Shown here piece after piece: positions 41,040 through 61,342 of a DNA stretch of 64,000 bases. The DNA comes from Clostridia bacterium (GTDB lineage: Bacteria; Bacillota; Clostridia; UBA1212; DUPL01): positions 335,567 through 399,566 of the forward strand of contig JBMNIW010000001.1 in assembly GCA_050951325.1 (NCBI GenBank), written 5' to 3'. The notes beneath the pieces were generated by a model, which saw only the letters and a list, made by a program, of their open reading frames with translations, was not told the origin of the DNA and did no database searches. The translations under genes were made by a program, and so were the position numbers. The first letter of the stretch is position 1. Each line of letters opens with the position of its first letter.

Positions 41040-41155
41040 TATCCAACCTGACCACACAACCTCAAAAACTTCCGAAAAAACATCTAACCTGACCACTCAC
41101 GACCCCTGACATCTAACCCGACCACTCGCGGGGCTATGACATCTAACCTGACCAC
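41040..41155. repeat. Element-end array: four ATCYAACCYGACCAC repeats
   Basis: Copies at 41040, 41081, 41110 and 41140. Confidence 0.9.
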
Positions 41156-41277
41156 TTGACTATCAAAAACCGCTCTTATGGACTTGTTCCCGCGAAGCAA
41201 AAAAATCTCATTTTTGTTTGATGGATTTTACACCCATATGTGCTAAAAGCCTTGATATATAAGCCTTTCTCACATAC

Positions 41278-41348
41278 TCACTCTTTTACCCTCGACATCA
41301 ATGTCACGCACTCAACGTGTGATAGGTAGGTGTTCGCGGAAACAAGTC
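41278..41348 (-). other. att-like site A: duplicated rlmD/rumA 3' end
   Basis: Minus strand reads DLFPRT (41348-41331), 11 bp, then HVECVTLMSRVKE* (41319-41278). Confidence 0.8.
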
Positions 41349-41424
41349 CAAAATGCAATGAAAACGCTTGATTTTACAGGCGTTTTACGCATTCATCAGA
41401 AGTGCCGACGTCCAATCTGTTAAC

Positions 41425-41832
41425 TCACATAAGTAGGCTATTCTGCAATTTCCTAACCAGCGTCACATCAGCAGGGAGCCAATTAACATTGAACAATTCA
41501 TTTTTATTAAGCCATCTTGCAGATTCTGCTTCCTTAAGAATAATCTCTCCATCTATCACAACACACCAAAAGCAATACATACTTAAATGAAAATCAGAAT
41601 AATCATACTCGATGGTCTCAATCAGTTCACTGACCTCGATTTTTACGGCGAGTTCCTCTTGGATTTCTCTTATTAGTGCTTGTTGCGGTATTTCTCCAGC
41701 TTCAATCTTACCTCCAGGAAATTCCCATTGTCCTTTAAACTCGCCACAACCTCTGGCGGTAGCAAAAATCTTTGTAGGGTTTTCCAAAGAATCGCAAATG
41801 ACTGCAGCTACCACTTTTATTGTTTTCATCAC
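41425..41832 (-). CDS. MutT/NudG-like Nudix (d)NTP pyrophosphohydrolase
   Basis: WEFPGGKIEAGE...ALIREIQEEL Nudix box; WLPAD. Confidence 0.92.
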   Translation of the reverse strand: MMKTIKVVAAVICDSLENPTKIFATARGCGEFKGQWEFPGGKIEAGEIPQQALIREIQEELAVKIEVSELIETIEYDYSDFHLSMYCFWCVVIDGEIILKEAESARWLNKNELFNVNWLPADVTLVRKLQNSLLM

Positions 41833-41833
41833 A

Positions 41834-42694
41834 TTATTCCTCAGCTAAAAAGTCAGATATGTAGTTAATTTCAGAAAGATAGCTATTATTTATTACGGAA
41901 GCCTCAACAAATATCTTTGCAAGCTCACGATTAATCTCAAACAGGTATCCCATATTTCCGTTTCCATTCTTATCAAACGGAGAATATTTCACCTGGCATA
42001 ATCTAATAATATCATCTTTAAACATTGATGTTTTTACAGGATTCCTAATTTCTATGTAATCACAATCAACTCTACGGCCGTCACGCTCCCATAGCCCTTC
42101 AACTGTTAATTCGTTTGGTTGAACACATTCATAACAAGGCGCCTTTGCAGTACTAATTGCTTTTACATATCCATCATAGCCATGTAGGATTATATCACCC
42201 TTGCGAACATCAAGAAGGCGTGTCCAGTGATGAGGCATAGTTCCTGCTTTATTTGAAATAGGTGCCCATATATACCCGCCACTAAACTCTTTGTCAAAGG
42301 TGTTCCCTTGGAAAACAAAGAATGTCATACGCTTACCTTCAATACGCTGAGAACGAGCAACTGGCTTCGGAATATATCCTGTTTTATGTGATACTGCAGC
42401 ACCCTTTACTACTTCCGCAGCGATTTTTCTTTCTTCCTCAACTTTGCGAGCTGCTAGTTCTGCCTGACGTCTTTCTTCCTCAGCCTTTTTTACAGTCTTG
42501 ATTTCGTCCATAATTGAAGCCTGTACTGACGCATCATCAGCCACTATGAACTTTTCAAAGGAGTCTGGGTATAGAAACTTCGATTCTTTCGCCGCAAATT
42601 TGATAGTCAAATAATTACCTGAAACCTCTGTTATAACACCTTGACCAAAGGCTTTATGTTTTACTTTTATATTTAATAAATCTACACCATTCAT
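41834..42694 (-). CDS. Protein with N-terminal SH3-like domain, coiled coil and C-terminal EVE/PUA-like domain
   Basis: VKHKAFGQGVI; FFVFQGNTF..E..GGYIWAP...W.RL..VRKGDIILH...GYLFEI resembles the reader domain of EVE-HNH nucleases; no HNH motif. Confidence 0.6.
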   Translation of the reverse strand: MNGVDLLNIKVKHKAFGQGVITEVSGNYLTIKFAAKESKFLYPDSFEKFIVADDASVQASIMDEIKTVKKAEEERRQAELAARKVEEERKIAAEVVKGAAVSHKTGYIPKPVARSQRIEGKRMTFFVFQGNTFDKEFSGGYIWAPISNKAGTMPHHWTRLLDVRKGDIILHGYDGYVKAISTAKAPCYECVQPNELTVEGLWERDGRRVDCDYIEIRNPVKTSMFKDDIIRLCQVKYSPFDKNGNGNMGYLFEINRELAKIFVEASVINNSYLSEINYISDFLAEE

Positions 42695-42724
42695 TATAAT
42701 CTCCACCTTATAACATGTAAATTT

Positions 42725-43651
42725 CTATTGTTTCCTTTGCTTCGAACTGTATTTTTTGCTGCTACGATGAGTGCCGTCATCGTCCGTCACGACGTTACTC
42801 CTTTTGAATCTTTCTTCTTGAACGGCCCTGAACTCGCTCTCCGTAATGATCGGCGGATGACATTCTTTCATTTGGAACTCATATTGCTGTGTTGCGAAAT
42901 CTAAAAGTGTAACTGTACCTGTGTATTTCTCATTTTCGAGCATCTTCTCTATAGAACGCTTGCTCCATGTTTCTTTACCAGTAGGAGAAGGGACGCCTGC
43001 TAGTGACAGTTTCTTGATGATACCAAGCACGCTGGCGCCATCCAGATACCATCTAAAAATGTCCCGCACAACCTTAGCCTGTTCATTGTCAATTACAAGG
43101 TCCCCATCCTTATTCTTAGAGTAGCCGTACAGCTTTCGTTTGTAGAGTCCAGATGTTCCATTTGCAGCTTTCATGGCAAGTCCCATGCGGATATTTTCGC
43201 TTCGGCTCTCATTTTCAGCTTGAGCAAAAGACTCCATCACCGAAATCATAAGATTGCTGTCAACCTCATCGGTATCCAAATTTTCTTCTTCAAATATGAT
43301 TCTGACTCCTGCTGTCTTCAATCGATTGATTGCTGATAATGTCTCTACAGTATCTCTACCAAATCGACTGATGCTTTTGGTAAGGACAACAGAGATATTG
43401 TGCGCTTCACATTCTCTAATCAATCGATCAAATTCTCTACGTGGAACTTCGCCTTTGGCAGACGCAATATCAATAAATACATCTGCCAGCCTCCATTGAC
43501 TCATATTCGCAACTGCTCTCGTTAAAGCAGAAATCTGTGCTGCGAGGCTATAAAGCTGTTCTTTTTCGTTCGTACTTACTCTGCAGTAAATTCCGACTTT
43601 CTTTTCTAAACGGTCATTCTTTACCGGGATATACCAGATTTTTGAATCCAC
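42725..43651 (-). CDS. Short serine recombinase (catalytic plus recombinase domain, no zinc ribbon)
   Basis: IYCRVST, TKSISRFGRD, LENEKYTG, HPPIIT. Confidence 0.92.
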   Translation of the reverse strand: MDSKIWYIPVKNDRLEKKVGIYCRVSTNEKEQLYSLAAQISALTRAVANMSQWRLADVFIDIASAKGEVPRREFDRLIRECEAHNISVVLTKSISRFGRDTVETLSAINRLKTAGVRIIFEEENLDTDEVDSNLMISVMESFAQAENESRSENIRMGLAMKAANGTSGLYKRKLYGYSKNKDGDLVIDNEQAKVVRDIFRWYLDGASVLGIIKKLSLAGVPSPTGKETWSKRSIEKMLENEKYTGTVTLLDFATQQYEFQMKECHPPIITESEFRAVQEERFKRSNVVTDDDGTHRSSKKYSSKQRKQ

Positions 43652-43775
43652 AAGCTCACCTCCTGTTTTAATATAGCCTAATTATATCACGTTTTATCGC
43701 CAATGATAAGTAGGCAATTATTGCTCATTAAATGCGTGAAATTACAACATATTGTGTCCGCGTAATCTCTTTCAG

Positions 43776-43910
43776 CTACATATTGCGCGTTATCAATACT
43801 ACGCACTCAACGTGCAACGAGCGGGGTGGATTGATGTCTTTTACATTGTCGGTAGTCGGAAACACGTCATCGCCACTTTTTGCACTATCGGTAGGCGGGA
43901 ACATATCGAC
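43776..43910 (-). other. att-like cluster B: two attB-like repeats plus a symmetric site with rlmD 3' end
   Basis: DMFPPTDSAK (43907-43878) and DVFPTTDNVK (43868-43839), 23/30 identical; gacatcaatcc arm; HVECVVLITRNM* (43814-43776). Confidence 0.8.
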
Positions 43911-43921
43911 ATATATAATAA

Positions 43922-45703
43922 CTACCCTTTCAAAACTCTAAACATTTCTTCTTTATGCTTTCTTGCTTTTTCTTCCGTCCATTTTTCATCATCGAAGTTC
44001 ACCAACTCTTTCATAATCTTGAGTTTCAAACTTTGTTCTATAATACTTGGATATGAGGTGATTTTTCCCTCTGGTGGTAAATTAGAAAACTTCGAGTTTC
44101 CTGACACTGTAATTAATGCGAGGTTGCCAAAGCCATCAAGGTCATCTGCTTCCCAGCTTTCACCTTCAACGGGATTTTGAGGTTGAAAGTGTTCAATGGA
44201 ACTTCTAAATTGGAACTGCCACTCATCATATAATGGAGGAATAATTTCCTTGCCCAAGTAAGAATAACCATTCTTATATAAAAGATAATCAAGGTAAGTA
44301 AATACGATTCTTTCAAAACCAAATCCACTAGAATTCTCAAACTTTGATTCGAAAACTTTTGTTTTGCAGTAATCTTCAAGTATTTCAATAATGTCACATG
44401 ATTCATTTTCTAATAAGCTTGTTAATATTAATGAAATCCAATGCATAGTTTTAGGTGATGTGTAGGTTATACGCAAGCAGGATTGCAGAGTTCTTAGTTG
44501 TTTATTATTCTGACTATTGTCCTCACCAAATGTTCCTACATATTTGGGTTTATCACCTTTCCCATCATTATACCTTTCTAAACGTTGTAACGACCATTTC
44601 CCAGTTTCTTTATAATCTCTAGCATATTCACGTTTCAATATATATTTATCAAACAGTACACGGCATTTTAACATATGAAATAAAAAGTTCTTTGCTTTAT
44701 CAGCGTCCCCCCAGGCCCATGATAAATTATTTAAGAAATGTTTATCATCAAGGGTTGAATCTTCCTCTTCTAAATTATTAAGTACAGCATTTATCTGAAG
44801 TAAAAAATTTGGGAACGAAATAATCGATTCAAAACGTTCATTCTCAACTTCATCCTTACTTATTTCATTATTAAAGAGTTTCTTGTTTTTTAGAATCTCA
44901 ATCAAAGGAACTAAATTATTGTCTTCATCTTCACTATGAATAAATTCCTTAATTGTATCAAAATCGTTAATATTATCCCTGATACTAGACCAATCATTTG
45001 TAAAAAGATACTTTCTAACACTGGGATCAAAATTCATTTGTATATACGAGTCCATGTTAGAGCATTTTTCCCAAATCAATGCTGCCGTTTTTTTATCTTG
45101 TTCTGTATCCAATACTTCTAAAAATTTTGCTTTTGCTATTTCATGAAGTTCAAGTTGCTCGCCACGAGTATTCATGATTTCAAAATAATGATTTAAATCT
45201 ATACCTTGTGGAACTTGTACACGAACAATAAAAACACTTTCCAGTTTTTTAGTTAAATCATTTTTATCTATATTATTAGATTTAAAATAGCTATCAATTA
45301 TTTGATATCCCTTTAAGATTTCAACAGATGCTAATTCCTCTATTAGCTCATTCTTGTTTCCTTTGCTTAGCATGTTAAGGGTACGGTTTGATTTTTCCCG
45401 TGCTTCAAATCTCAACCCATCTTTAGCAAAATTCATACCAAGATAACTTTCTAATAGAAATAGTGTTGTCAACCTCTGTTGCCCGTCTATTACTTCATAA
45501 ACATTATCATCCCTTTGATTAACAATTAGGTTTCCAAGAAAGTAATTTTTATTAGAGTCGCCAATAGAGCTATCAATATCTTCTATCAATTGTTCTATCT
45601 CCGATACTCCCCAAGCATAGTTGCGTTGATATATAGGAACTATATAATGAACATTAGTAAAAATTTTTGATACCGGTATGATTCTTATATTTTTATCCAT
45701 CAT
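43922..45703 (-). CDS. GmrSD-like protein (DUF262 plus DUF1524/HNH)
   Basis: PIYQRNYAW, IDGQQRLTT, FEIMNTRG; SIEHFQP...GNLALI....NSKFSN. Confidence 0.9.
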   Translation of the reverse strand: MMDKNIRIIPVSKIFTNVHYIVPIYQRNYAWGVSEIEQLIEDIDSSIGDSNKNYFLGNLIVNQRDDNVYEVIDGQQRLTTLFLLESYLGMNFAKDGLRFEAREKSNRTLNMLSKGNKNELIEELASVEILKGYQIIDSYFKSNNIDKNDLTKKLESVFIVRVQVPQGIDLNHYFEIMNTRGEQLELHEIAKAKFLEVLDTEQDKKTAALIWEKCSNMDSYIQMNFDPSVRKYLFTNDWSSIRDNINDFDTIKEFIHSEDEDNNLVPLIEILKNKKLFNNEISKDEVENERFESIISFPNFLLQINAVLNNLEEEDSTLDDKHFLNNLSWAWGDADKAKNFLFHMLKCRVLFDKYILKREYARDYKETGKWSLQRLERYNDGKGDKPKYVGTFGEDNSQNNKQLRTLQSCLRITYTSPKTMHWISLILTSLLENESCDIIEILEDYCKTKVFESKFENSSGFGFERIVFTYLDYLLYKNGYSYLGKEIIPPLYDEWQFQFRSSIEHFQPQNPVEGESWEADDLDGFGNLALITVSGNSKFSNLPPEGKITSYPSIIEQSLKLKIMKELVNFDDEKWTEEKARKHKEEMFRVLKG

Positions 45704-47008
45704 CTACCACCTATTCCATTCACAAAGTAAATCATACACATCCCTGTACTTCTCTTTGTTTTTATTCTCAATTTTAGGTTGCTCTAAAGAAATGAGTTTT
45801 AATTCTTCTCCGTTTTTCATTTCACTGATTTCTGAAAACATACCTAATCCATAGTTTACGCGTTCATGTTCTCCTCGCACATATTTATTAATTGTCTGTA
45901 GATAGACAGCTTCCATAACCAGCCGCAAAGAATAACTCCAAGTATATAATTGCTGCATCACAGCTTTAGATAGGTTTTCAATTCCAAAGCGATCAGCAAA
46001 AAATAATAGCGCACATTCATATAATTGTTTAATGTAAAGATCTCCAGTGCGTCTACTCGGAACTTGTTCCTCTGTATGAACTTTACTCACTAATCTTTGT
46101 ACTTGCTCAAGTAGATTTCTATAATGTAGAGTGTAATAAAAAAATCGCTTTCCTGCCATAAGAGGCTGTGTTAATTGAAATTGATTTAATGCTCTAGATG
46201 CAAGTAATTCATTGCTTCCATTTGCATTAAACTGTTCTACAAAAAGATTACTTGCTTTATGATAAATCGCATAATTAAATACATTTGTGGTTTTAATCCC
46301 TTTGAACACATCTATTTTACTAGATGAATAGCCCAAACCACTCTTTCCTTTATACCATTGGGTCAATGGGTAAAGATAGATTTTAAATAGGTCATTCAAA
46401 TCATCTTGGTTTACATTTTCCCATTGGTTGATAATCCTTATTTTTTGGTTTTCCTCTTCATCATTCATCTCGCGTAAATGATATGACTTTAATAAATCAT
46501 GTGGGGCTAACTCCTTACCGCGCGAATTTTGTGAATCGAAGAATTGAAAAGCCTCTTGCTCACTGTCTGTAACAATTTGAACTACACTACAACGTTCGAA
46601 TAAATAATTTTTGTACTTGTTTTGCTCATCTTTCGGTAGCTCACTTATTCTCTTAGATAAAATTTCATAATTAGTTACAATCACATCGTTAGACAGTTGA
46701 TTGTATTTTTCTTGTAATAACCCCAGATCCTTCTCACCTAAACAGTATAGAAGAATCGAAATAGTTGTCAGTCGTTGTTGGCCATCGACAATGTTATACT
46801 TTCCGTTTTCTTTATGTAAAATTACTGAACCAACTCTATATTCTTGTAAACCTTCATGGTATGCATTATAAGTATCTTGAAAAAGCGTATTTGCAGACTT
46901 CACACTCCAACTATACGGGCGCTGATATGGTGGTAAAGCCAATTTCATATGAAGTAATTCATGAATCTTTCTTATTTTTAATTCATCTTGAAGCAAAGCC
47001 ACCTGCAA
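45704..47008 (-). CDS. DUF262 protein without recognisable HNH
   Basis: PPYQRPYSW, VDGQQRLTT, FDSQNSRG, DLLKSYH. Confidence 0.88.
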   Translation of the reverse strand: MQVALLQDELKIRKIHELLHMKLALPPYQRPYSWSVKSANTLFQDTYNAYHEGLQEYRVGSVILHKENGKYNIVDGQQRLTTISILLYCLGEKDLGLLQEKYNQLSNDVIVTNYEILSKRISELPKDEQNKYKNYLFERCSVVQIVTDSEQEAFQFFDSQNSRGKELAPHDLLKSYHLREMNDEEENQKIRIINQWENVNQDDLNDLFKIYLYPLTQWYKGKSGLGYSSSKIDVFKGIKTTNVFNYAIYHKASNLFVEQFNANGSNELLASRALNQFQLTQPLMAGKRFFYYTLHYRNLLEQVQRLVSKVHTEEQVPSRRTGDLYIKQLYECALLFFADRFGIENLSKAVMQQLYTWSYSLRLVMEAVYLQTINKYVRGEHERVNYGLGMFSEISEMKNGEELKLISLEQPKIENKNKEKYRDVYDLLCEWNRW

Positions 47009-47024: not shown

Positions 47025-47603
47025 TCAAATCTCGATTATGTAATATTTACGACCGTCACTTAAATCCTGCCAGATAAAATCATATCTGCTTGTCAATGCA
47101 ATGCTATCTTTATTTTTTCCTACACCTGTTGGCTTAAAAATACAACCGTAAACAGAATATTCTTCTCTAAAAAACCTATATATACCTTCATTGTTGCGCC
47201 CTTCATAAAAAGGTCTATCTGAAACAAGAGCAACAGCAGCTGTTTTAGTAAATCCTCGGTTCTTAAGCTCCTCCATAAATTTAATATCCTTCACGAACGA
47301 ATACATCTGTTCTGGATACTGGCCATTTAATGGGCACTTAAGTTCAATTGCATATTTCTCTGATTTATCTTCATTAAAAATAGTAATATCTACTTCTTTT
47401 TTTATAGTTTTATTGTCTGGTGTAAAGTATGATACATTTCTTTCAAATTGAATACGATAGTCCGGAAGCTTTTCACGTAGGAATATCCCCAGCTCATGCT
47501 GGAGGCTAAACTCATTATAAATTTCAATACTCTTAGACTGAACAAACAAGAAAAAGTCATCTACTAATTGCATTAAATTAAGCAAAGCCTCCACCCCATA
47601 CAC
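47025..47603 (-). CDS. Putative PD-(D/E)xK-fold nuclease
   Basis: NEFSLQHEL...FERN...EVDITIF......YAIELK. Confidence 0.6.
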   Translation of the reverse strand: MYGVEALLNLMQLVDDFFLFVQSKSIEIYNEFSLQHELGIFLREKLPDYRIQFERNVSYFTPDNKTIKKEVDITIFNEDKSEKYAIELKCPLNGQYPEQMYSFVKDIKFMEELKNRGFTKTAAVALVSDRPFYEGRNNEGIYRFFREEYSVYGCIFKPTGVGKNKDSIALTSRYDFIWQDLSDGRKYYIIEI

Positions 47604-47656: not shown

Positions 47657-47890
47657 TCAAACCTTCTGATACCTCTGCTGGTTAGATGAGGCCTTTTCAA
47701 TTGCCTTTATATTACCTTCCATTTTATTTACGTAGTTTAAAAATAAAGTCCCAAGCAGAAGTCGATCCTTTCTGGGTATTCTATTCCATACATAACCCTT
47801 GAACAAATCTTTAACAAGAAAGACTTCACCTTCATTCAAGTTTTCAGTTTCCTTAATAGCTTCTTCTAGTAACTCATTAACATCACCCAT
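47657..47890 (-). CDS. DUF1413-like small DNA-binding protein
   Basis: GEVFLVKDLFKGYVWNRI...RLLLGTLF. Confidence 0.75.
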   Translation of the reverse strand: MGDVNELLEEAIKETENLNEGEVFLVKDLFKGYVWNRIPRKDRLLLGTLFLNYVNKMEGNIKAIEKASSNQQRYQKV

Positions 47891-48030: not shown

Positions 48031-49596
48031 TTATACATCTACTTCTACACCAGATTTAAATTCAATAGTTAGTTTATCATCATAGACCGTTATTTTCTCT
48101 ATAAGTCTCCTTACTAGCTGCTCATCATATTCCTCAAGGAGGGTGGATTGTTCATTAAGGAATTTTTCCATATCTTCTAGCCTTTGCTTGGAACCTTTTT
48201 TGCCTGCTTCTTCTGCTAAAGCCTTATGCCTTTCCTCTCTGAGCCTGTAAATCTCATCGGCTATATCGTTATAATCTTCTTTGGAATTGGCCAGTCTCAA
48301 AAGGTCTTTTTGTAATTCCTCTAGCTTTTTATCTATCTCGGAAACAATATTATTGTCCGTTTCACTTATCACTGTTTCTATATTTTCCTTTAAGATAGTT
48401 AAAAAGCCATCCTTTTGCCCTATTAGTTTATTAATTGCCTCCACCGTAGCAATACCTATCATATCCTCCAGCACGGTTCGGGAATGACAAGTTAACCCTG
48501 TATTCTCAAGTCTACTGACGCATCTCCAAACAATCGATTTTTTACCTCGGTTATTCCAATGAACTCTACGGTATATTTCGCCGCACTCTCCACAGAAGAT
48601 AATTTGCGAAAATACATGATTTGAACTAAAGTTTCTTTTCTTTCCACTAGTACTTATATGTCCTCTACTTCTACGAACTAACTCTTCTTGTACCTGCATG
48701 AAAATTTCACGCGGGATAATGGCTTCATGGTTATTCTCTACATAATACTGAGGTACGATTCCGTTATTTACAACCCTCTTTTTTGTAAGAAAATCTACCG
48801 TATAAGTTTTTTGGAGCAGTGCATCACCAATGTATTTTTCATTGCTTAATATTTTCCTTATAGTACTGGTATGCCACCTTTTTTTCCCCGCTCCCGTAAG
48901 TATGCCATCAGCTTCAAGTCCTTTTTTGATTTTATCCATACTTGAGCCTTCAAGATACTCTCGGTAAATCCTTTTGACTATTTCAGCTTCCTCCGGCACA
49001 ATTACTAATCGCTTATTTTCATCTTTGGTATATCCTAAAAACCTAGAACAATTGACCATTACCTCTCCCTGTTGGTATCGGTATTGATAGCCAAGCTTTA
49101 CATTCTGGCTTAATGACTGGCTCTCTTGTTGCGCTAAGGATGCCATAATGGTAAGCATAATTTCACCTTTGGCATCCAGTGTATTGATATTTTCTTTCTC
49201 AAAATATACCGCAACATTTTTATCTTTAAGTTTTCTGATGTATTGTAGACAGTCCAAGGTATTTCTAGCAAATCGGCTTATTGATTTGGTAATAACCATA
49301 TCAATTTTCCCAGCCATACACTCATCAATCATTCGATTAAATTCGTCGCGATTTTTTGTATTTGTGCCGCTGATACCATCATCAGCAAAGATCCCTGCAA
49401 ATTCCCACTCTGAATTCTTCTTGATAAACTCTGTATAGTGTTCAATCTGCACTTCGTAACTACTAGCCTGCTCATCACTATCTGTAGAAACTCGGCAATA
49501 AGCAGCGACCCGAAGTTTTGGTGTTTCATCTTCTTTTCGGCTGTTGCCTACACGTTTAATTGCAGGTATAATCATTACATTTTTATTAACTGCCAT
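48031..49596 (-). CDS. Large serine recombinase (cassette 1, third gene)
   Basis: [25 protein letters not shown], zinc ribbon CGECG...WRC, coiled coil. Confidence 0.95.
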
Positions 49597-50014
49597 CTTG
49601 CTGCACCTCACTTTCTATTAAACTGTATACATATTCCGCTTGTGTAAAAGGATTTGTATACTTCTGAATTATTTGTCCTATGGAAAACTTCTTATAAATA
49701 GTAGGTTTATCTTCTGTCTTGGGTTCAAAGATTCTGCCTAGCTTTTTTGCTCTCTTTACCCTCTCTGCTTCTGCTCTTTCGTAGGTCTCTTTATCAATGA
49801 TGGCAGGGTAATAATCATCACCAAGATAACGTTCATTTCTTAGCATCCTTCCAGCAGTTCCATGATAAGCATCTATTCCAGCAGATTTTGCCGCGACCGA
49901 TAAGGAAAGGCCTGATAAGTAACCCTTATATAAATTCCTAACCTTTTCAGCTTTTTCTTCATCGATAACTGCTATTCCATTCTCTATCCTATAGCCATAA
50001 GGCGTATATGCCAC
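49586..50014 (-). CDS. Small recombinase-domain protein (cassette 1, middle gene)
   Basis: PYGYRI.NG...[17 protein letters not shown]; no catalytic Ser domain. Confidence 0.85.
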
Positions 50015-50019
50015 TTTTC

Positions 50020-51876: not shown

Positions 51877-51955
51877 GTAGAATCACCTCCTACCTAATAG
51901 CCGCGGGAACAGGTCGAAGTTGAGGATTTGTAAAAATTAAATTAAATCAGAGCAT

Positions 51956-52774: not shown

Positions 52775-52791
52775 TATAATCACCTCAACAT

Positions 52792-53122: not shown

Positions 53123-53467
53123 CAATCTTACCTGAGCGGCGATTCCTTGGCTACGGCCGCAAAGAAAGCAGGCATAAACACTTACCATTCCGGTATCGGC
53201 AGAATGCTACGAAACACTCGATACCTCGGTGATGAGTTTTATCCGCCGATTATTGATCAGGACACTTTCAACACTGCCGAGACGGAACGTATTATGCGGG
53301 CGGAAAGACTCGGTCGTACCAAAAAGTTTAAACAAGAAAAAGAGGTCGTCTATCCTACCACCTTTCGCAGGAAAGAGGGAACAGAAGAATTCGACGACCC
53401 ATTCGGGCAAGCGGAATACACCTACAGTTTAATTGAAACGGAGGTGAAAAAGAATGGCAGTCAGTAA
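53120..53467 (+). pseudogene. 5'-truncated small recombinase-domain gene (cassette 2)
   Basis: FQSYLSGDSLATAAKKAGI..YH..IGRMLRNTRYLGD aligns with 49586-50014 and 62882-63340. Confidence 0.85.
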
Positions 53468-55022
53468 AAATGTCACCGTGATTCCGGCAAGGAAGCATGC
53501 TCGCAAGAGCAAGGATGAAGAAAAACCGAAGCTGCGCGTTGCTGCTTACTGCCGTGTTTCCACAGACAGCGAGGAGCAGGCTACCAGCTATGACACACAG
53601 ATTGAGCATTACACCGCCTACATACAAGGGCATCCCGACTGGATGCTGGCGGGAATATTTGCTGATGACGGTATTTCCGGTACCAACACCAAGAAACGCG
53701 AAGAATTCAACCGCATGATTGACGAGTGTATGGCCGGAAATATCGATATGATCATTACAAAGTCCATCAGCCGCTTTGCTCGAAACACACTGGATTGTTT
53801 GAAATATATCCGACAACTTAAGGATAAGAACATCGCGGTCTATTTCGAGAAGGAAAATATAAACACAATGGATTCCAAAGGTGAGGTAATGATTACGATC
53901 ATGGCCTCTCTCGCCCAACAGGAAAGTCAGTCCTTAAGCCAGAATGTTAAGCTAGGCTTGCAATACCGATATCAACAAGGTGAAATCCAAATCAACTGCG
54001 CCCGGTTTCTCGGTTATACCAAGGATGAAAACAAACACCTAGTGATTGTTCCCGAGGAAGCTGAAATTGTAAAACGCATCTACCGAGAATACCTTGAAGG
54101 CGCTAGTATGCTAAAGATAGCCCGTGGATTAGAAGCTGATGGAATTTTAAACGGAGCAGGCAATGAAAGATGGCATACCAGCAATATAAACCACATCCTG
54201 CGGAACGAAAAATATATTGGGGATGCCCTTTTGCAGAAAACTTATACCGTTGACTTTCTAACAAAGAAACGCGTTAAGAACAACGGTATTGTTCCGCAGT
54301 ATTATGTAGAAGGGTCGCATGAAGCCATTATCCCGCATGAAATTTTCATGCAGGTGCAGGAAGAGCTTATCCGCCGCCGAATTGTCCATACCAGTCCAAA
54401 CGGAAAGACCAGAACCTTTAGCAGCAACCACGTCTTTGCTCAGATAATCACCTGCGGTAAATGCGGTGAGGTTTTTCGCAGGGTGCATTGGAACAACAGA
54501 GGTAAGAAGTCCATCGTCTGGCGCTGTGTCAGCCGCTTAGAGAACACCGGCCTATTCTGCGACGCACGCACGGTACTGGAAAGTACCATCGAGCAAGTGC
54601 TGGTCACCGCTATTAATCAGACGCTCTGTGACAAGGACTCTTTCCTCACCACGCTACGGGACAACATCGCCACCGTCATAAATCGTGAAAACAACAGAGC
54701 CTTGGCGGATATCGATAAGCGCTTGGAGGAGCTGCAAACGGAGCTTTTGAAACTGGCTACTTCCAACGCGGATTATGATAATGTTGGCGATGAGATTCAC
54801 CGCCTTCGTGACCAAAAGCAGAAGCTGCAGCTTGAAAACGTAAACCATGAGGAACTGAAAAAACGGATTGCAGACATGAGCACATTTCTAAAAGAACAGC
54901 CCCCCGACATTACCGAATATGACGAGCAGCTTATCCGACGGCTGATTGAAAAGGTCACCATCAACGAGGATAAATTCACCGTGGAATTCAAATCTGGATT
55001 GACGGTGGATGTGGAGGAATAA
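53454..55022 (+). CDS. Large serine recombinase (cassette 2, third gene; inverted orientation)
   Basis: Close paralogue of 48031-49596 and 61351-62919. Confidence 0.95.
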
Positions 55023-55050
55023 GTTAAGAAGAACGAGGCACTCTACGGAT

Positions 55051-55230
55051 TGAACTGCGCCCTGTCAAGTAGACAAACAAAATAATAAAATTTACAGACT
55101 GGATTCCGCCTAATACTGGATCCAGTTTTCTTATGTAGCGTTTTCAAGCAACTGGTGATATGACATGGGGGACAGGCATTTTAGTTTCTTCTGGCGGCGG
55201 CAATAGTTATAAAAGTGAATATATTTGTCT
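55051..55230 (-). mobile_element. IS3-family right-end remnant
   Basis: TGAACTGCGCCCTGTCAAGTAGACA end; minus strand DKYIHFYNYCRRQKKLKCLSPMSY. Confidence 0.75.
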
Positions 55231-55397
55231 GTGATTTGCATAATCTTAAAATTTTGTTTATACTTCATATTGAAGACCTCCAGTAGATATTATTCGTGGC
55301 GTTTGTTGTTGATGACCACCTACGTTAATTCTACTGGACTGGTCTTCTTTTTTCAAAGTTCGTTATTCCTTATTACAGAAATGCTCCTACATTTATT

Positions 55398-56726
55398 TTA
55401 ATTCTTGTGAATCAGCCGCAATGTTTCCTCCATAGCGTCATGAGCGGGAACCTGTATATCAGGAAGAAGTGGCAAATTGGACTTAGATGCATCTGGTCGT
55501 ATAAAATACTTATAGGACACAGTGAAGGCAAGCAGTGCATTCGGCGTCTGAAAATACAGGATATCTCCGTAGGAAGAGGGCATATTTCCAGGACTCTCTC
55601 CAACCACCATACAGAGCCCGTTATCTGAAAGCAGTGTCGCAAAGTCCACAGCTGAGCTAAAGCTGTCCTCGCCGGTCAACACATATACATCTCCCGAAAA
55701 CACATACTCCGCTTGCTGATTTTTCTGTCGCCCAGGCTGTTTTTTCCATATAACCGGACCAAAACGCACTGTGGAGCTTCCAACCTCATAGTTCTCCACT
55801 GGAAGGTAACGAAGAAACTCGTTAGCGACCAGTGAATTTCCGCCGGGATTGCCTCGCAAGTCCACGATAACACTGTGGACGCCCTCATCACGCACAGATG
55901 TAAAGAAATCTTTCAGTGCAGTCTTGTATGTCTTGTCATAGATACATTGACGAAGTATGAAAATCCCTACACCGGACGCTCTATCTACCGAATAGTCGTA
56001 GAAGGGCTCCGTTCCTATCGGCATAGCTATCGCATTCTCCTGCAGCGCAAAGGCTTTATTGATGGAGCTTCCGTCATTTTGCCGCTCCAGCGAAATTTCA
56101 ATCTCCCGCCCAGTATTTATGCCTACAAAAGCCAGATAATCGCTGCGATTGATGCGTGAGGCAAAGACATAACGGCTCCAGATGTCAAGCTCATAGGAAA
56201 ATTGTTCCTGAAATCGTTCGTAAAGCTGAGCAGCCGAAACACCACCTATCTTATTAACAGTATATCCGTCATATCCGCCGCCTGAACAAACCAAGCGTTG
56301 CCCTTCCCATGAAAATAATAACGGTAGAAACTTTGTATCCTCATAGTACGCCCGTACCATGGTATGGGAATCTTCAAGGCATGCAAGAACCCGAGATGCA
56401 CTTTGCCACAGTGACAGGACCGTAACCTCTGTCGATTCGGAAAGCTTTGCATACTCCCGCTCATATGCCTTCTGAACTGCCGCAGGCAGGTCGGATATAC
56501 AAGCCGGATGACGCTCCCGCAGACGATTGACAATAAACTTTAAATCCTCCGCAGCTTGCATCCCGGTAAGGACGGTATCAAGCTCTTCGGATTTCTCAAA
56601 GGTGCTTACCGTCCCCCGGTAAGGATCAAGCCATATCCGCCACACTCCATATAATGCAATAGCACATATAGCAAAAACGAAAAGAAAAATCCCTATATGC
56701 TTGGTCCATTTCTTTTTCATACTCAT
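55398..56726 (-). CDS. S41-family peptidase, membrane-anchored
   Basis: DSHT, IVDLRGNPGGNS, SFSSA, VVGE. Confidence 0.88.
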   Translation of the reverse strand: MSMKKKWTKHIGIFLFVFAICAIALYGVWRIWLDPYRGTVSTFEKSEELDTVLTGMQAAEDLKFIVNRLRERHPACISDLPAAVQKAYEREYAKLSESTEVTVLSLWQSASRVLACLEDSHTMVRAYYEDTKFLPLLFSWEGQRLVCSGGGYDGYTVNKIGGVSAAQLYERFQEQFSYELDIWSRYVFASRINRSDYLAFVGINTGREIEISLERQNDGSSINKAFALQENAIAMPIGTEPFYDYSVDRASGVGIFILRQCIYDKTYKTALKDFFTSVRDEGVHSVIVDLRGNPGGNSLVANEFLRYLPVENYEVGSSTVRFGPVIWKKQPGRQKNQQAEYVFSGDVYVLTGEDSFSSAVDFATLLSDNGLCMVVGESPGNMPSSYGDILYFQTPNALLAFTVSYKYFIRPDASKSNLPLLPDIQVPAHDAMEETLRLIHKN

Positions 56727-56926
56727 TCTCCGCCCTTTGAGCCGCTTCCCTTACCGAACAGCATTGACGCAATAAGGCCGATCAGCAAACCCGCAACCGC
56801 TCCCCCGATCATACCGGCCGCGATATGGAAGCTGTACAATATCGAAGCCAGCGCTCCAACTCCGGAACCGAATACAATGCCTAGCGCGGGTAATAGTTTT
56901 ATTACGGAATTCTTATTTTTAGACAT
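56723..56926 (-). CDS. Small glycine-zipper membrane protein
   Basis: GxxxG-rich two-helix protein; stop overlaps S41 start; GGAGGTG RBS. Confidence 0.75.
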   Translation of the reverse strand: MSKNKNSVIKLLPALGIVFGSGVGALASILYSFHIAAGMIGGAVAGLLIGLIASMLFGKGSGSKGGE

Positions 56927-57178
56927 ATTCTCACCTCCAACCTATTTCATTTTTTCGATTTTCACAATGACATTCTGCTCACGTTCATTGTTAAAGTACT
57001 GGATCTTAATAACCTCGCCGATACCAAGTTCCATACCGTCGAATTCTTTCTTGGTATCATCTAAATCGCTCTGGCATGATCTAAATCACGCCTTCGCACT
57101 TGTTCCCATGTAGCAATGTTTGTTCGATTTTAGTAGATGGCCTCGTTTGCTATAATTAGTACACAGACAAACTGGAAT

Positions 57179-57676
57179 TTAACAGTTCCGAATAATTAAA
57201 TCAGCAACTTGCACTGGAGTGATTTTCGATACATCTACTTTATATGTATTCAATTTTTTGTAAAAAGGTATGCGCTCTATGCTTCTACGAATCACATCTT
57301 CTGTACGAATACCAGCATCGACATCCTTTCTCAAACGCGCTTGCAATGCTTGTTCGCTGCACACCAAAGATATAGAATGAACCTTACAGTCCGATGTGTC
57401 AAGTCGTGAAACAATATAGTCAATAATAGTCTGTTCATGCATAACCCAGCAAAACACGATGTTTTCATAAGCAGAGCACTTAATAAAGCTATTCAAAAGG
57501 AAGCAGATATTCTCTAATACCATTTGCTTTGTTTCCTCTGTCACTTGAAAAGGGTGCATATCCCAACACCAATCCCCGTCGAGGAAAACGCAGTTATTTA
57601 ATTTGTTTTTTATAATCTGGCAAGTAGTTGTTTTTCCTACTCCCATTGTTCCGCCAATCAAATAAATGTTTTTCAT
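57179..57676 (-). CDS. P-loop kinase/AAA_33-like protein
   Basis: GGTMGVGKTT, LDGDWCW. Confidence 0.85.
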   Translation of the reverse strand: MKNIYLIGGTMGVGKTTTCQIIKNKLNNCVFLDGDWCWDMHPFQVTEETKQMVLENICFLLNSFIKCSAYENIVFCWVMHEQTIIDYIVSRLDTSDCKVHSISLVCSEQALQARLRKDVDAGIRTEDVIRRSIERIPFYKKLNTYKVDVSKITPVQVADLIIRNC

Positions 57677-57734
57677 GCTCAAACTCCTGTAAATTCCGAC
57701 TTATCGCTTTAATCGCGACACATAGTTATACCAA

Positions 57735-57906
57735 CATCCAACCTGACCACACAACCTCAAAATAATCCGAAAAAACATCTAAATCGACCACTTAACTATC
57801 AAAAATAGCCTTTATGGACTTATTCCCGCGAAGCGATATTTTCATGTTTTTCGCCTGGTGGGTTTCATACCCATATCTGCTAAAACCCTTGATATATAAG
57901 GGTTTT
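57735..57906. repeat. Element end homologous to 41040-41270
   Basis: catccaacctgaccac repeats (57735, 57776); plus-strand gacttattcccgcga (57817); palindrome aaaacccttgatatataagggtttt (57882-57906). Confidence 0.85.
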
Positions 57907-57914
57907 CAGCTCTC

Positions 57915-58075
57915 TCAATCTTTTACTCTTGTTATCAATACTACGCACTCCACGTGGCCTGAGCCGCTTGGATTGATGTCTTGGGCTGATTTTTTGAACC
58001 TTACGTTTACGTGAACATGTCAATGGAATTTTCGATGTTTTTTCGTAAAGTGTCTGTTCGCGGGAACATGTCAAT
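57915..58075 (-). other. att-like cluster C
   Basis: IDMFPRT (58075-58055), IDMFT (58024-58010), gacatcaatcc arm (57980-57957), HVECVVLITRVKD* (57956-57915). Confidence 0.8.
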
Positions 58076-58109
58076 ATCGTATGAAAGTGGAGTGGCTGAT
58101 TGTAAACGA

Positions 58110-58148
58110 ACAAGGCACTCTACGAAACAACAACATAGAGTGCCTTGT
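58110..58148. terminator. Hairpin after AraC gene
   Basis: acaaggcactcta...tagagtgccttgt. Confidence 0.65.
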
Positions 58149-58207
58149 TGCTGAAACACAAATATTAAGCCATAATTTAGACACAAAAAGTACAAATACG
58201 TTTTAAC

Positions 58208-59110
58208 TTATTTTATCAACTTTTTCACCGGAACAGCTGCCCGTGCTCCTGTTTCAGGTTCGGCGCCCATCCCCAGATATGGCGCATCATCAGATTTTTC
58301 CCACCCGAAACGTTCAAATGGATAATTTGCGATAGCCTCATTCACAATCCCGATCGCTATAGGAAAATTGTTTGGATCTTCAAACGGCATACCGTTAAAG
58401 TACAGATAAGTGCAGGGTGGCAATTCTGCTATTTCATATCCATCAGGGATAGGCTTACAGTAATCCAATGGAACCTCAACGAAAAATGCGTGACCATTTG
58501 TATTCGGTCGGATTAAGAATTTTGGCAAGCGACCTCCAGCAGCGGTGTCAAACTTCTCGGGAATGCTGTTGAAAAATCCCTCCCATTCACAACCGACTTC
58601 TTCGCATGCGGAGAAATAGTCAGTTGCATTGTGACGCAGAAAAATCAGCTTCCTTGCTGGTCTTTCCACCACAGTAACCGTAACAGTTCGTGATACTTTT
58701 TCATTCAACACAGGCTTTATGCCTCCTTTAAGGATGTAGTAGGCTTCAATGGGATAATGGACAAACCATTTTATCGGTGGGGTTTCCATGTGATATTTTT
58801 GTGGGGTAAGCCCAAATTGCTGAAAAAACGCCCTGGTAAATCCGTCATGTGAATCAAAGCCGCTGCTTATTGCCACATCCACAACTTTTTCATTAAAAGA
58901 CTGCAAGGTCTGTGCCGCTTTAGTAAGCCGAAGAGCGCGGATGGTTTCAAAAAGTGTCCTGCCCGTTAATTCTTTAAAAATTCGTGCGGCATGGTATTTA
59001 CTGTAACCGGCAACTTTTGCAATGTCATCCAGCGTGATGCTTTCGTCCAAATGCGCGATGATATAATACTGCATTCTGCTAACAGCTTTGATTTTGTCCG
59101 ATAATCCCAT
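58208..59110 (-). CDS. AraC-family regulator with GyrI-like effector domain
   Basis: GYSKYHAARIFK; VAISSGFDSHDGFTRAF...FG.TP. Confidence 0.92.
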   Translation of the reverse strand: MGLSDKIKAVSRMQYYIIAHLDESITLDDIAKVAGYSKYHAARIFKELTGRTLFETIRALRLTKAAQTLQSFNEKVVDVAISSGFDSHDGFTRAFFQQFGLTPQKYHMETPPIKWFVHYPIEAYYILKGGIKPVLNEKVSRTVTVTVVERPARKLIFLRHNATDYFSACEEVGCEWEGFFNSIPEKFDTAAGGRLPKFLIRPNTNGHAFFVEVPLDYCKPIPDGYEIAELPPCTYLYFNGMPFEDPNNFPIAIGIVNEAIANYPFERFGWEKSDDAPYLGMGAEPETGARAAVPVKKLIK

Positions 59111-59288
59111 TTTCCACCTCCGGCATCCAGTATAGCAAAAGCGACGGTAAGCTACTCGACCAAAATTGCTAAGTTATTGTTCAGTAATTCTGCTTCGGGT
59201 TTATTTATAAATTGATATTCTTCTTTGTACCATTTTTTCATTTATCATCTCTCCTCGTACAGCATAGCTGTTCTACTTTAATTATAAA

Positions 59289-60233
59289 TTACCTCCTGGT
59301 TTTCCACAGAGCCATAGGATGATTTTCTATTCGCTTTATAATCTCTGTATCTTCAAATAATAACTGAGGTATATATACTTTCTTTTCAAAGTAATCAAGG
59401 AACTCTTTCTCTGAAGGTGTTAAAACGAGTAATTCGTTGAGATAATCCTTTACCACCTTCTTCGCTGTTTCCAAATCAAAAGAATCCCGTTTAGTCAATA
59501 CCGGAAGCAAATCCGTCTTTATTTTATGATTTGTCAAGCTATCAATGGCTGCAGTGTTGAAGTCTTTGTTGATTTCCTTTGCAGAAACGGCCGCATAAAA
59601 TACTACACATTTTCTGAGTAGTTTTTCTTCCATTTCATCAAACAATTTAAATCTTATCATGTTATATGTATCATATAAATCTCTTGCTGCGGCACGATTC
59701 AGAAGGGCGTTAATCTTGCTTCCAAATATCTCAATGACATTAAGGCAGTTTAATTTGTATTCGCTTTCAAAATGTTCTGTTACTATTCGCATTTCTTGTG
59801 CCGGAAATACATGTGCTCGCAAGGAATAATTAATTTCGATTTTAATATTATCCTTGTTTCCTCCCAAATTCACATATTCATAAACCCACGAATCCAGACT
59901 ATGTGGCTTTTTTGATTTTGGGCTCAGATTATAGCCACTGAGTTCCATAAATCTGGCAAGTGTCTTATTAATGTTTTCCCTATTGTGAAGCATTTTTTCC
60001 CTGCTGTCATTAACTAAATAATCAAGGTCAATGTCCACAGATAGCCTCGGAAGGTTAAAGGCGATTAGATTAATTGCTGTTCCACCCTTTAACGCTAAAT
60101 TGCCTTTCAACTTTGGTTCGGTGCTTAGAAATTCAAGAATATCTGCCAAACGATAAACCTTTTCCAAAGTGTCCCGGGCAAATCCAAATTCAGAAGCTCT
60201 TTTTGATATATAGCTTTTATCGTAATTAAACAA
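59289..60233 (-). CDS. abiEii: AbiEii-family nucleotidyltransferase toxin
   Basis: LKGGTAIN, RLSVDIDL, KIEIN, KINAL..R...RDLYD. Confidence 0.9.
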   Translation of the reverse strand: MFNYDKSYISKRASEFGFARDTLEKVYRLADILEFLSTEPKLKGNLALKGGTAINLIAFNLPRLSVDIDLDYLVNDSREKMLHNRENINKTLARFMELSGYNLSPKSKKPHSLDSWVYEYVNLGGNKDNIKIEINYSLRAHVFPAQEMRIVTEHFESEYKLNCLNVIEIFGSKINALLNRAAARDLYDTYNMIRFKLFDEMEEKLLRKCVVFYAAVSAKEINKDFNTAAIDSLTNHKIKTDLLPVLTKRDSFDLETAKKVVKDYLNELLVLTPSEKEFLDYFEKKVYIPQLLFEDTEIIKRIENHPMALWKTRR

Positions 60234-60984
60234 GAGGGGCGCCTCCCTGCTCAGTTATTTGAAAAAGATATTCCGGAACCACTAATCTCCATTCATTCAA
60301 ATACTTTGTACTATCCTTCGTCAGATAACGTGTGCTTTTCCCTATTTTATTCCTGCAATAGGATATAAATTCATCAGATAACTGCAATAGGTCCTTATAA
60401 TGTTCCATTAAAAAACCAGTCTTCTGATATAAAAACTGCAGATTATATGCATCCAAATACTTGATTAATTCATATTCACTCAAGTATGGTATAGACTCTA
60501 TGCAATTTAACAGCTCTTCAATGCCTCCGATTTTTTCGAAGTCTTTTATACTGTCAACTACCGTACGTTCCAGTGTGGTGACCCGAATTCCGTGTGTATT
60601 TCTAGGCTCTATAACTCCACTTGATAGTTTCGATGAAACGTATTTATAGGTTATTCCATTGAATTCAAAATCATCGAAGCGTCTTTCAGAAGAAACATAA
60701 ATCTCATAAAACACCTGATTTGATATACCCATATATTCAAAAGCTGAATGATGCGAAAGATAAGCAGTATTATTGATGGCACAAGCTATGTGGTATTTAG
60801 TTGCCACAGGCTGCCCATCGGCTACATTGATACATGTATATAAATTATTTCTGATTTTCCTCACTAAGCCTTTTTTGGATAAACGAAGAACAAGGGAAGA
60901 TGCGGTCTTTTTGTTTCCGACAAGCTTGTATACATCATCCATTCTAAAGGTGTTTAGTTTTGCGAGTTGAGAATATCCTACCAT
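60226..60984 (-). CDS. abiEi: AbiEi-family antitoxin/regulator
   Basis: wHTH N-terminus; YLSHHSAFEYMG; RVTTLERTVVD; overlaps toxin start. Confidence 0.88.
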   Translation of the reverse strand: MVGYSQLAKLNTFRMDDVYKLVGNKKTASSLVLRLSKKGLVRKIRNNLYTCINVADGQPVATKYHIACAINNTAYLSHHSAFEYMGISNQVFYEIYVSSERRFDDFEFNGITYKYVSSKLSSGVIEPRNTHGIRVTTLERTVVDSIKDFEKIGGIEELLNCIESIPYLSEYELIKYLDAYNLQFLYQKTGFLMEHYKDLLQLSDEFISYCRNKIGKSTRYLTKDSTKYLNEWRLVVPEYLFQITEQGGAPLV

Positions 60985-61223
60985 TACAAATACCTCTTTA
61001 ATTTTCGCCATAATTTCTTTAAATATAAAGGAATTTTATCACACTATAAAGTCTATTTTTATTATTTCTCTAATTTTATCGTATTATTCTTCATATGTAA
61101 AGAAATTTATTAAAATATTAAAGTACATATTTATAAAACACTTATGAAAAATACCCACTATCTATTCTGTCAACTCAACCCTACCTATTTTTGAGTTCAA
61201 ATTTCACCTCAAAATACCCCATC

Positions 61224-61342
61224 GATATGTTCCCATGTACGTATTTTGGGCCTTTAGGTTGAGTAGATAAGTTGAATATAATCAAACAAATACTGTAAAA
61301 TCAAGATTTACAAATTTGACATCGATGATAACACTCCACATG
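61224..61342. other. att-like site D (degenerate)
   Basis: Minus catgtggagtgttatcatcgatgtcaa (HVEC) 8 bp after the recombinase stop; ctgtaaaatcaag (61293); plus-strand gatatgttccca (DMFP, 61224). Confidence 0.65.

Follow-up and report, generated by a model that had tools for sequence, protein, structure and literature searches.

Why does the 3' end of an rRNA methyltransferase gene occur four times, always in the same orientation, within 20 kb of a clostridial genome? The question is raised by positions 41,040 to 61,342 of the 64,000-nucleotide stretch analyzed here (the window), which is the last 64 kb of contig C1 of a Clostridia bacterium known from a metagenome-assembled genome (MAG) of sludge or digester communities. 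The region is very probably the decayed remainder of an island that serine-recombinase elements built by tandem accretion at the 3' terminus of rumA (rlmD/rlmCD). Loci (L), genomes (G), contigs (C) and sequencing runs (X) are cited by working labels.

The core CAYGTKGAGTG matches the window four times, all on the minus strand, at the sites s1 to s4 (Table 1); shuffled sequence gave a mean of 0.08 matches, and none of 100 shuffles reached four. A looser form, CAYGTNGARTGY, has 12 matches across the 3.08-Mb assembly, 4 of which lie in the window. The four co-oriented HVEC sites claimed in the initial annotation were thus recovered on the minus strand, to the base. Among same-order relatives, the RumA C terminus reads ...PVDMFPxxxHVE[TCS]V.L..R... 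(10 termini inspected), and therefore the window copies are RumA tails. They are of the RumA type (DMFPxxxHVE), not of the rlmH type. A RumA profile hidden Markov model run against the six-frame translation of the window matched only the short tails, at E values of 0.17 to 1.6, which are individually not significant.

The tails were compared with 79 genome loci, which are the matches of the recombinase adjacent to s4 (61351-62919) searched against one genome per species, and with 75 metagenome loci. The pattern GACATCAAT-N15-CA-N15-ATTGAT(GTC) gave 18 matches with exact spacing over the window and loci, one of them being the window's own copy (L109). The site is an imperfect palindrome of 50 bp, arranged as 9+15+CA+15+9 (GACATCAAT...ATTGATGTC); the codons for V-L-M-S in the tail form its right arm. 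Since the 18 exactly spaced matches are symmetric, the invariant CA of the His codon is the palindrome center. A 50-bp palindrome with a central crossover dinucleotide has the size and layout expected of a large-serine-recombinase site. In silico, the window therefore contains a two-base center within imperfect inverted repeats; homology to other genomes begins or ends at the CA, and partner swaps start at the base after it. On these sequence features, each tail copy is a predicted serine-recombinase att junction, in which a left flank (P-left) is joined to a tail, and the CA of the His codon would be the crossover dinucleotide.

In other genomes, the left halves of these sites recur with other right halves. 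The 14-nt left flank of s4 stands directly 3' of the recombinase stop in three loci; the junction of one (L026) is identical to s4, and the s4-type P-left of the other two (L032 and L033) is joined to genuine RumA tails. The left flank of s2 and s3 (...GACATCAATCC-N13-) recurs in L028, L033, L038, L039, L045, L053, and others, with a different tail each time. L033 matches the window without a difference over the 60 nt to the left of s2 (leftward from L033:16524) and diverges from the third base of the His codon; the s3-type P-left is joined to other tails in L028, L038, L039, L045, and L053. For ~330 nt, the sequences to the right of s1 and s3 can be aligned with the rumA-proximal element ends of L088 and L097; L097 is a complete genome, where the aligned element end directly follows an intact rumA. 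RumA tails were found in 38 of the 79 recC-related loci (recC being the family of the s4-adjacent recombinase), 3 of which hold two or three tails. An intact rumA with an element-type tail was seen in the related loci L097, G344:C14, G319:C3, L085, and L086. When breakpoints in related genomes were set against the sites, the homology edges coincided at the CA. This exchange of partners supports the earlier proposal that the sites are att junctions of rumA-targeting serine-recombinase elements.

G030 also has the s4 junction. There, the contig carrying rumA (C14, L105) stops at its position 1 with ...DMFPQTAH as the last codons, and the assembly break thus falls exactly on the crossover point.

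At least six elements, E_A to E_F, make up the region, a tandem accretion that has since decayed. The sites cut it into the modules that had been listed from the letters alone, namely, recombinase plus EVE-like plus Nudix; phage remnant plus a DUF262/GmrSD pair; AbiE plus AraC; kinase plus S41; and OLD. Three architectures are represented. Type I (E_A and E_D) has a recA-recB-recC recombinase triplet (528, 154, and 526 aa) co-oriented with rumA, followed either directly by P-left (E_A) or by a hairpin, 4 to 7 kb of cargo, two DMFP-like arms, and P-left (E_D); the E_D layout recurs in L028, L036, L038, L039, L040, L045, and L053. Type II (E_C and E_F) is best seen in L097, which runs from intact rumA through a surrogate tail, a terminator hairpin, an inverted arm, 22-nt repeats, and co-oriented cargo to a convergent triplet; E_C matches this architecture. 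The third is a 2.5-kb mini-element with a single 308-aa recombinase (E_E). Triplet members of 522 to 528 aa match Pfam Resolvase, Recombinase, and Zn_ribbon_recom.

The four sites join these elements in order. At s4, the P-left of E_A, which starts 8 nt past the recC3 stop, is joined at the CA (61342-61341) to the tail of E_B; at s3, E_B contributes a type I P-left and E_C a type II tail, which meet at the CA (57956-57955); at s2, the type I P-left of E_D meets the mini-element tail (43814-43813); and at s1, the mini-element P-left is joined (41319-41318) to the P-right tail HVECVTLMSRVKE (then stop) of the type II element E_F. E_B resembles a cis-mobilizable element (CIME): it has att-type ends on both sides, its only open reading frames (ORFs) are AbiEi, AbiEii, and AraC, and it adjoins E_A with its intact triplet. 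Its P-right end family recurs in L026, L123, L124, L137, L147, L149, and L191, and stretches homologous to the P-right end of E_F occur in L088, L097, L123, L124, L132, and L159. The fusion of E_C to E_D is accounted for, we infer, by a single deletion that runs from within recB of E_C as far as the lysis end of E_D. An amidase upstream of recA, as in E_D, is also present in L051. The only gene of a transfer module found in the window is this lysin-type amidase; E_A continues beyond the contig end.

Table 1. Coordinates of the tail copies, DMFP-like arms, and elements of the island
Feature	Position in window	Strand	Remarks
s1 junction	41319..41278	minus	reads HVECVTLMSRVKE, stop
s2 junction	43814..43776	minus	reads HVECVVLITRNM, stop
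s3 junction	57956..57915	minus	reads HVECVVLITRVKD, stop
s4 junction	61342..61316	minus	reads HVECYHRCQICK, stop; degenerate tail, 1 base out of register past HVEC
DMFP-like arm before s1	41348..41336	minus	17 nt (not 9 nt) from the His codon, out of frame
Two direct DMFP-like arms before s2	43907.., 43868..	minus	
Two direct DMFP-like arms before s3	58072.., 58021..	minus	second one degenerate
E_A, end of type I triplet element	61343..64000	minus	continues off contig
E_A recC3	61351-62919	minus	
E_A recB3	62882-63373	minus	
E_A recA3	63337->64000	minus	
E_B, att-flanked, no recombinase	57957..61342	minus	CIME-like
E_B degenerate tail and conserved P-right end	61143-61342	minus	inverted arm at 61224
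E_B AbiEi	60226-61011	minus	PADLOC 6.5e-110
E_B AbiEii	59289-60233	minus	PADLOC 7.4e-124
E_B AraC	58208-59110	minus	Pfam
E_B distal end		minus	two DMFP-like arms and type I P-left
E_C, rumA-proximal end of type II element	53147..57956	minus	
E_C end parts		minus	tail HVECVVLITRVKD (stop), terminator, inverted arm, partial repeats
E_C AAA_18 kinase	57179-57682	minus	Pfam
E_C S41 peptidase	55398-56726	minus	Pfam
E_C recC	53454-55022	plus	
E_C recB, 5'-truncated	53147-53467	plus	106 aa vs 154-163 aa in other copies; first ~50 codons gone
E_D, prophage remnant, type I	43815..~53140	minus	
E_D ORF104 and amidase+SPOR lysin	52073-52783	minus	Pfam
E_D recombinase triplet 2	50020-51606, 49586-50050, 48031-49611	minus	hairpin after
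E_D DUF1413	47657-47890	minus	
E_D protein with no assigned family	47025-47603	minus	
E_D GmrSD_N+DUF7834	45704-47008	minus	GmrSD-like pair, PADLOC HEC-06/Orf5
E_D GmrSD	43922-45703	minus	GmrSD-like pair, PADLOC HEC-06/Orf5
E_D distal end		minus	two DMFP-like arms and P-left
E_E, intact 2,496-bp mini-element	41320..43814	minus	tail HVECVVLITRNM (stop), three genes, P-left
E_E rec308	42725-43651	minus	Pfam Resolvase + Recombinase
E_E EVE-fold protein, 290 aa	41834-42706	minus	
E_E Nudix protein	41425-41832	minus	PADLOC candidate PDC-S07, 2e-47
E_F, type II end	41319-~40700	minus	
E_F conserved P-right end	41028..41277	minus	terminator-like hairpin, inverted DMFP-like arm 41176-41196, four 22-nt repeats
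E_F OLD/AriA/GajA-type ATPase, N-terminal ~108 aa	40633..41022	minus	first cargo gene
IS transposase DDE_Tnp_1	39080..40873	plus	Pfam; cuts the E_F ATPase and the distal end of the island

The initial annotation had noted DMFPxT copies before three of the sites. These copies are real and are more numerous than it listed. The DMFP-like arm GAYNTGTTYCCRC has five matches in the window against 0.01 expected, and of the 36 genome matches to its 11-nt form, 7 lie inside these 20 kb. No such arm precedes s4 on the minus strand. Inverted copies lie 117 to 140 nt downstream of s1, s3, and s4 (at 41181, ~57825, and 61224), and inverted repeats of 21 to 30 nt bracket s1 and s3. Within the type II element end at 41039-41160, there are four 22-nt direct repeats (spacing 41, 29, and 30 nt), which are kept in L088, L097, L123, and L124, with a partial set at 57726-57792. 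The extra arms, direct in P-left and inverted in P-right, and the 22-nt repeats may be accessory or protein-binding sites. A stray arm, GACCTGTTCCCGC, lies at 51903-51915 on the minus strand, upstream of triplet 2 and with no adjoining tail.

Judged from the alignments, the only module of the window that stands out as a discrete, recurrent unit is E_E (41320-43814), with its own single 308-aa recombinase. Its size of 2,496 bp is found again in L128, L129, L148, and L151. Copies of 94 to 96% nucleotide identity have different right-hand partners in these four loci and in L127, and the full-length copies in L129 and L151 end 8 nt past the CA of s1. At the other end, homology to E_E starts at the CA of s2 (q400/401) in 24 of 61 loci and 2 to 5 nt earlier (396-399) in 8 more; it starts farther upstream in 7, all with the same type I neighbor, and later in 22, 4 of which are cut by a contig end. 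A RumA-type tail (...RN[MI], then stop) lies 160 to 168 nt upstream of the recombinase start in 32 of the 41 metagenome loci that have more than 200 nt upstream, and a second tail follows 1.2 to 3.6 kb after the recombinase start in 11 of the 14 loci with sufficient sequence. On the left, at least 14 of the 32 loci have a genuine rumA end (...DMFPxxx) as partner, and the rest have another element's P-left.

Thirty mini-element units could be delimited. They measure 1.5 to 3.4 kb, are often found in arrays, and carry one to three co-oriented cargo genes; the recombinase has 302 to 309 aa in 26 units and is frameshifted in 4. All 44 cargo-stretch ORFs, a count that includes recombinase fragments of the 4 frameshifted units, are co-oriented with the recombinase. 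An intact rumA is followed by one 3.0-kb unit in G344:C14 and by at least four tandem units, each with a ~308-aa recombinase, on the 83-kb contig G319:C3. The arrangement of the window, with a mini-element upstream of a convergent triplet of type II, recurs in L131, L138, L151, L164, L172, L179, and L195.

Large serine recombinases carry, after the recombinase domain, a Zn-ribbon domain with a coiled coil. The E_E enzyme (rec308) has no match to PF13408 (Zn ribbon) and ends ~27 aa after the Recombinase domain. The best 120 of its 3,869 relatives (E<=1e-30) are all 305 to 309 aa long, with Resolvase and Recombinase domains and no Zn ribbon; the idea that rec308 is a fragment of a longer recombinase was rejected on these data. 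The cargo of the family is varied and includes Nudix, metallophosphoesterase, SAM methyltransferase, a WapI-like immunity protein, AAA_18 kinase, a GT28/EryCIII-like glycosyltransferase, DUF6994 plus GNAT, an ECF sigma factor plus a serpin, DUF2992, an HTH protein, and several proteins with no family. In L143 (1695-2960), the glycosyltransferase, of 421 aa, is the mini-element's only cargo; its family includes macrolide-inactivating enzymes.

The 290-aa protein of E_E has no Pfam family; it was modeled with a mean pLDDT of 81.5, and the C-terminal part of the model adopts an EVE/YTH/ASCH-type fold. This fold is matched best by VcaM4I, a modification-dependent endonuclease (E 1e-14; 35% identity across 145 columns), and next by EVE and YTH domains; the "EVE-like" call made at first reading therefore stands. 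A natural fusion of this protein family with a Nudix domain (P0229, 415 aa) supports, at the level of sequence, a functional link between the two cargo genes of E_E. With the EVE-like protein as bait against 400 class-level genomes, 14 of the 398 scored matched, the source (G000) included; one other match was full length, and the search led to G319 and G344.

A full-text literature search found nothing on mini-elements with a ~308-aa recombinase or on their arrays, and the family looks new and apparently undescribed. Enterococcus faecalis EF_B0058, a different recombinase, is presumably an enzyme of resolvase/invertase size. The 2026 report on small serine recombinases as defense markers that deals with it (PMC13552941) mentions no methyltransferase, attB, or integration site and was set aside.

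We propose, tentatively and at somewhat less than an even chance, that the rumA tail of anaerobic Firmicutes is an open docking port whose users include autonomous mini-elements of 1.5 to 3.4 kb that stack in arrays and shuttle single accessory or defense genes. Each would possess one 305- to 309-aa recombinase with no Zn ribbon or coiled coil and one to three cargo genes, possibly read through from rumA. The genes shuttled may include the EVE-reader and Nudix pair, the WapI-like immunity protein, GNATs, the glycosyltransferase, and the serpin. If this is true, mini-elements would be the serine-recombinase counterpart of integron cassettes or tycheposons. A narrower idea, that of defense-only cassettes, was rejected, since modules in L026 and L033 are not obviously defense genes.

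For the island as a whole, we propose that a serine recombinase would insert each incoming element by a crossover within the conserved motif ...DMFPxxx-HVE..., at the CA of its His codon. Each element would supply a surrogate tail (HVE-C/T-V-V-L-I/M-T/S-R...stop), a right half-site that would encode a working RumA tail. Integration at the CA would keep rumA whole and would re-form beside the gene an attB-like junction of native left half and surrogate right half. Because this new rumA-proximal junction would resemble attB, it could accept the next element. Arrays would grow on the rumA side, with the newest element nearest rumA and older ones pushed distally, and the internal junctions would be hybrids of P-left and P-right. 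In later decay, a deletion would have fused E_C to the prophage E_D; an insertion sequence (IS) cut E_F, and E_B retained its two ends but has no recombinase. Observed in silico are the junctions with their symmetry, the boundaries of the units, and the recurrence of these features elsewhere; the crossover dinucleotide, the order of arrival, and current mobility are what we infer from them. The order proposed agrees with that argued for vanG and ICE-r elements in PMC4120198.

The initial annotation had gone further and described an integron-like growth platform run by three-gene serine recombinases, that is, a resident triplet that captures, stacks, and reshuffles recombinase-less cassettes at a fixed site. 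This is very unlikely, although E_B does have both ends and no recombinase, and the cargo genes are small, diverse, and co-oriented with rumA, as are all 44 cargo-stretch ORFs of the 30 mini-element units. The recurrent small units carry their own 305- to 309-aa recombinases, as does the mini-element in the window, and E_B was not found elsewhere as a unit. The triplets sit in separate large elements with their own ends: one belongs to a prophage remnant, one to an off-contig element, and one is a truncated convergent copy. Among the scanned ORFs, no resident integrase, fixed platform with promoter, or attI-like site was seen; no tyrosine integrase family occurs among the Pfam matches of 44 window ORFs, and no search was aimed at attC.

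Several observations weigh against an accretion island at rumA, the main weaknesses being the missing rumA, the MAG origin, and a mobility that is inferred from sequence. No rumA was found in the 12 contigs of the assembly, which is 96% complete (best PF05958 score, 21 bits; best TIGR00479 score, 30 bits versus a cutoff of 183.55), and the window is cut off by the end of its contig; linkage to rumA in this organism is thus a prediction. The gene scores above the cutoff in 25 of 29 other same-order genomes. No overlap of the window's contig end with any other contig was found. The recombinase and att stretches are multicopy in the source communities, with depth spikes of 5 to 15 times the flanks, and a misjoin at a repeat is possible; the high depth fits ends common to many elements and is not a sign of excision. 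In Logan contigs from four runs, no contig bridged s3 or s4. The earlier suggestion to mine reads for circular junctions yielded neither an excision circle nor an empty site in these contigs or in the 75 metagenome loci, and no terminal overlaps marking circular mini-element contigs were seen among those loci. No whole-unit counterpart of E_B or of the E_C/E_D fusion was demonstrated elsewhere. The stray arm at 51903-51915 fits no junction and is not kept upstream of recA in 36 related loci. The gene order of mini-elements also varies: the recombinase precedes the cargo in E_E and the first G319 unit, and the cargo precedes the recombinase in G344 and two G319 units.

Other read data bear on the same stretches. 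In run X18, four contigs diverge at 57948 into another RumA tail, and divergence occurs also at 61345; at 61159, five contigs diverge in X2 and six in X6. Runs X15 to X20 hold about half of the sampled words and show no clean pattern of module presence or absence. Joints at 43814->48041, 55022->57738, 55022->58104, and 52917->61159 were set aside as evidence of excision; their sides are 21 to 55 nt at a 90% setting, and they probably come from related elements of other organisms.

That the island is a chimera, with elements of several organisms stitched together at shared att and recombinase repeats during metagenome assembly, is very unlikely. In its favor are the origin of the genome in sludge or digester samples, contigs in G000 and G030 that break at these repeats, and a summed depth of the shared stretches far above that of the cargo modules. 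Against it, the stretch from 55000 to 61400, which spans s3 and s4, holds 84 to 97% of its sampled words in 14 runs from 6 studies. Cargo depths are of the same order within a run (6 to 18 in X2; 66 to 190 in X6), and similar arrays stand on long contigs elsewhere, such as G319:C3 and L033. Segmental duplication of, or homologous recombination at, the rumA 3' end, which might be thought of because the copies are short, similar, and co-oriented, is extremely unlikely, since both flanks of each copy are conserved ends of unrelated mobile elements with other partners elsewhere and the breakpoints converge on a single dinucleotide at the palindrome center.

The distal limit of the island lies at the IS. 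The ATPase fragment of E_F matches Pfam AAA_15 (7.6e-25) and PADLOC AriA (1.8e-22) and Old (2.8e-15) over residues 3 to 108; left of the IS, neither the remainder of this gene was found nor were the original chromosomal tail and flank recognizable. Two IS transposases lie in the 8 kb left of the island (HTH_38/IS30-like, 33860-35167; DDE_Tnp_1, 39080-40873). A branched-chain amino acid transporter at 30339-31238 is truncated, and the left flank looks rearranged. Elsewhere in the source genome there are more serine recombinases, three of them adjacent (C12:3019-6504) and one alone (C9:59844-61286), with 24 to 43% identity to those of the window, and C10:1391-6493 is the sole other stretch of the assembly resembling the cargo of E_A-related elements. 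The recC3 protein is 95 to 98% identical (92 to 97% in DNA over 2.6 kb) to copies in ~30 genomes labeled as very distant taxa, including Clostridium, Tepidanaerobacter, Thermoanaerobacterium, Ureibacillus, Syntrophomonas, and MAGs labeled Thermosipho and Leptospira (L025 to L055). This near-identity suggests either very recent, promiscuous spread in thermophilic and anaerobic communities or contaminated MAG bins.

The locus shows, at base resolution, how a rumA accretion island is built in a host other than streptococci: its 50-bp site with the CA at the center, its surrogate tails, and its additional arm motifs. Indefinite reuse of the site would be explained, as every element would rebuild an attB-like junction. 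The analysis also reveals a very small element, made of a recombinase and cargo, which abounds in digester metagenomes. Should the 308-aa enzyme act alone, it would be a minimal site-specific integrase with a conserved bacterial target, of interest for mechanism and as a tool. The arrays are a place to seek new defense genes.

How does the island compare with known systems? Integron cassette arrays resemble it in the small, diverse, co-oriented cargo stacked at one site; they differ in their tyrosine integrase IntI, attI/attC sites, platform promoter, and recombinase-less cassettes, none of which we judge the window to match. Staphylococcal cassette chromosome (SCC) elements are large-serine-recombinase elements (ccrAB or ccrC) at the 3' end of rlmH/orfX; they restore the site, form tandem stacks in which some units have no recombinase, and bring antiphage defenses. 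The likeness to SCC and SCCmec extends to an rRNA methyltransferase gene 3' end as target, site regeneration, tandem stacking, recombinase-less units, and defense cargo. The target here, however, is rumA and not rlmH, and the host clade is another, so that the comparison with stacking at rlmH made at the outset is apt as an analogy; SCC is an analogue only, and the island is not a member. SCC/SCCmec composite islands are treated in the available part of 10.1101/2023.03.17.533233.

Closer relatives use rumA itself. The gene is an established target of serine-recombinase integrative and conjugative elements (ICEs), integrative and mobilizable elements (IMEs), and prophages, with tandem insertions (PMC4120198, PMC11578063, PMC5357655, PMC5704250). 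The vanG and ICE-r elements of streptococci, enterococci, and Roseburia insert in rumA in tandem and restore in-frame tails (PMC4120198). Like the elements in the window, they have the recombinase gene at the element end, a target in the last rumA codons with the tail restored in frame, and a 2-bp target flanked by imperfect inverted repeats, with the older element distal in tandem insertions (PMC4120198). They differ in being conjugative elements of ~45 kb with one 547- to 549-aa recombinase, a GA target, and an 11-codon displaced tail (PMC4120198), whereas the window has triplets plus a 308-aa recombinase, an inferred CA crossover, 12 to 13 displaced codons, and at least six units, mostly decayed.

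Streptococcal ICEs, IMEs, and prophages with serine integrases at rumA, including IME_SpnAP200_rumA (PMC5357655, PMC5704250, PMC7168690), share with the window the target gene and recombinase superfamily, but the hosts differ (Bacilli versus anaerobic-digester Clostridia). The streptococcal IMEs carry relaxase/oriT modules, and none was seen in the 1.5- to 3.4-kb units here. Dehalobacter has rumA-bounded "nested recombinase islands," and the rumA 3' end has been named an integration hotspot (PMC11578063). These islands are also alike in host, Clostridia-related Firmicutes, and in the many recombinases between core genes; they are 100 to 400 kb long and, in the accessible text of that report, are not resolved into att-delimited units, with no att anatomy or mini-elements described (PMC11578063). 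Accretion with CIME formation is a general route to tandem and composite islands (PMC5704250). Since tandem insertions at rumA, accretion, and the Dehalobacter islands were described earlier, the phenomenon is not new: it is SCC/CIME-style accretion, known already at rumA in streptococci and Dehalobacter.

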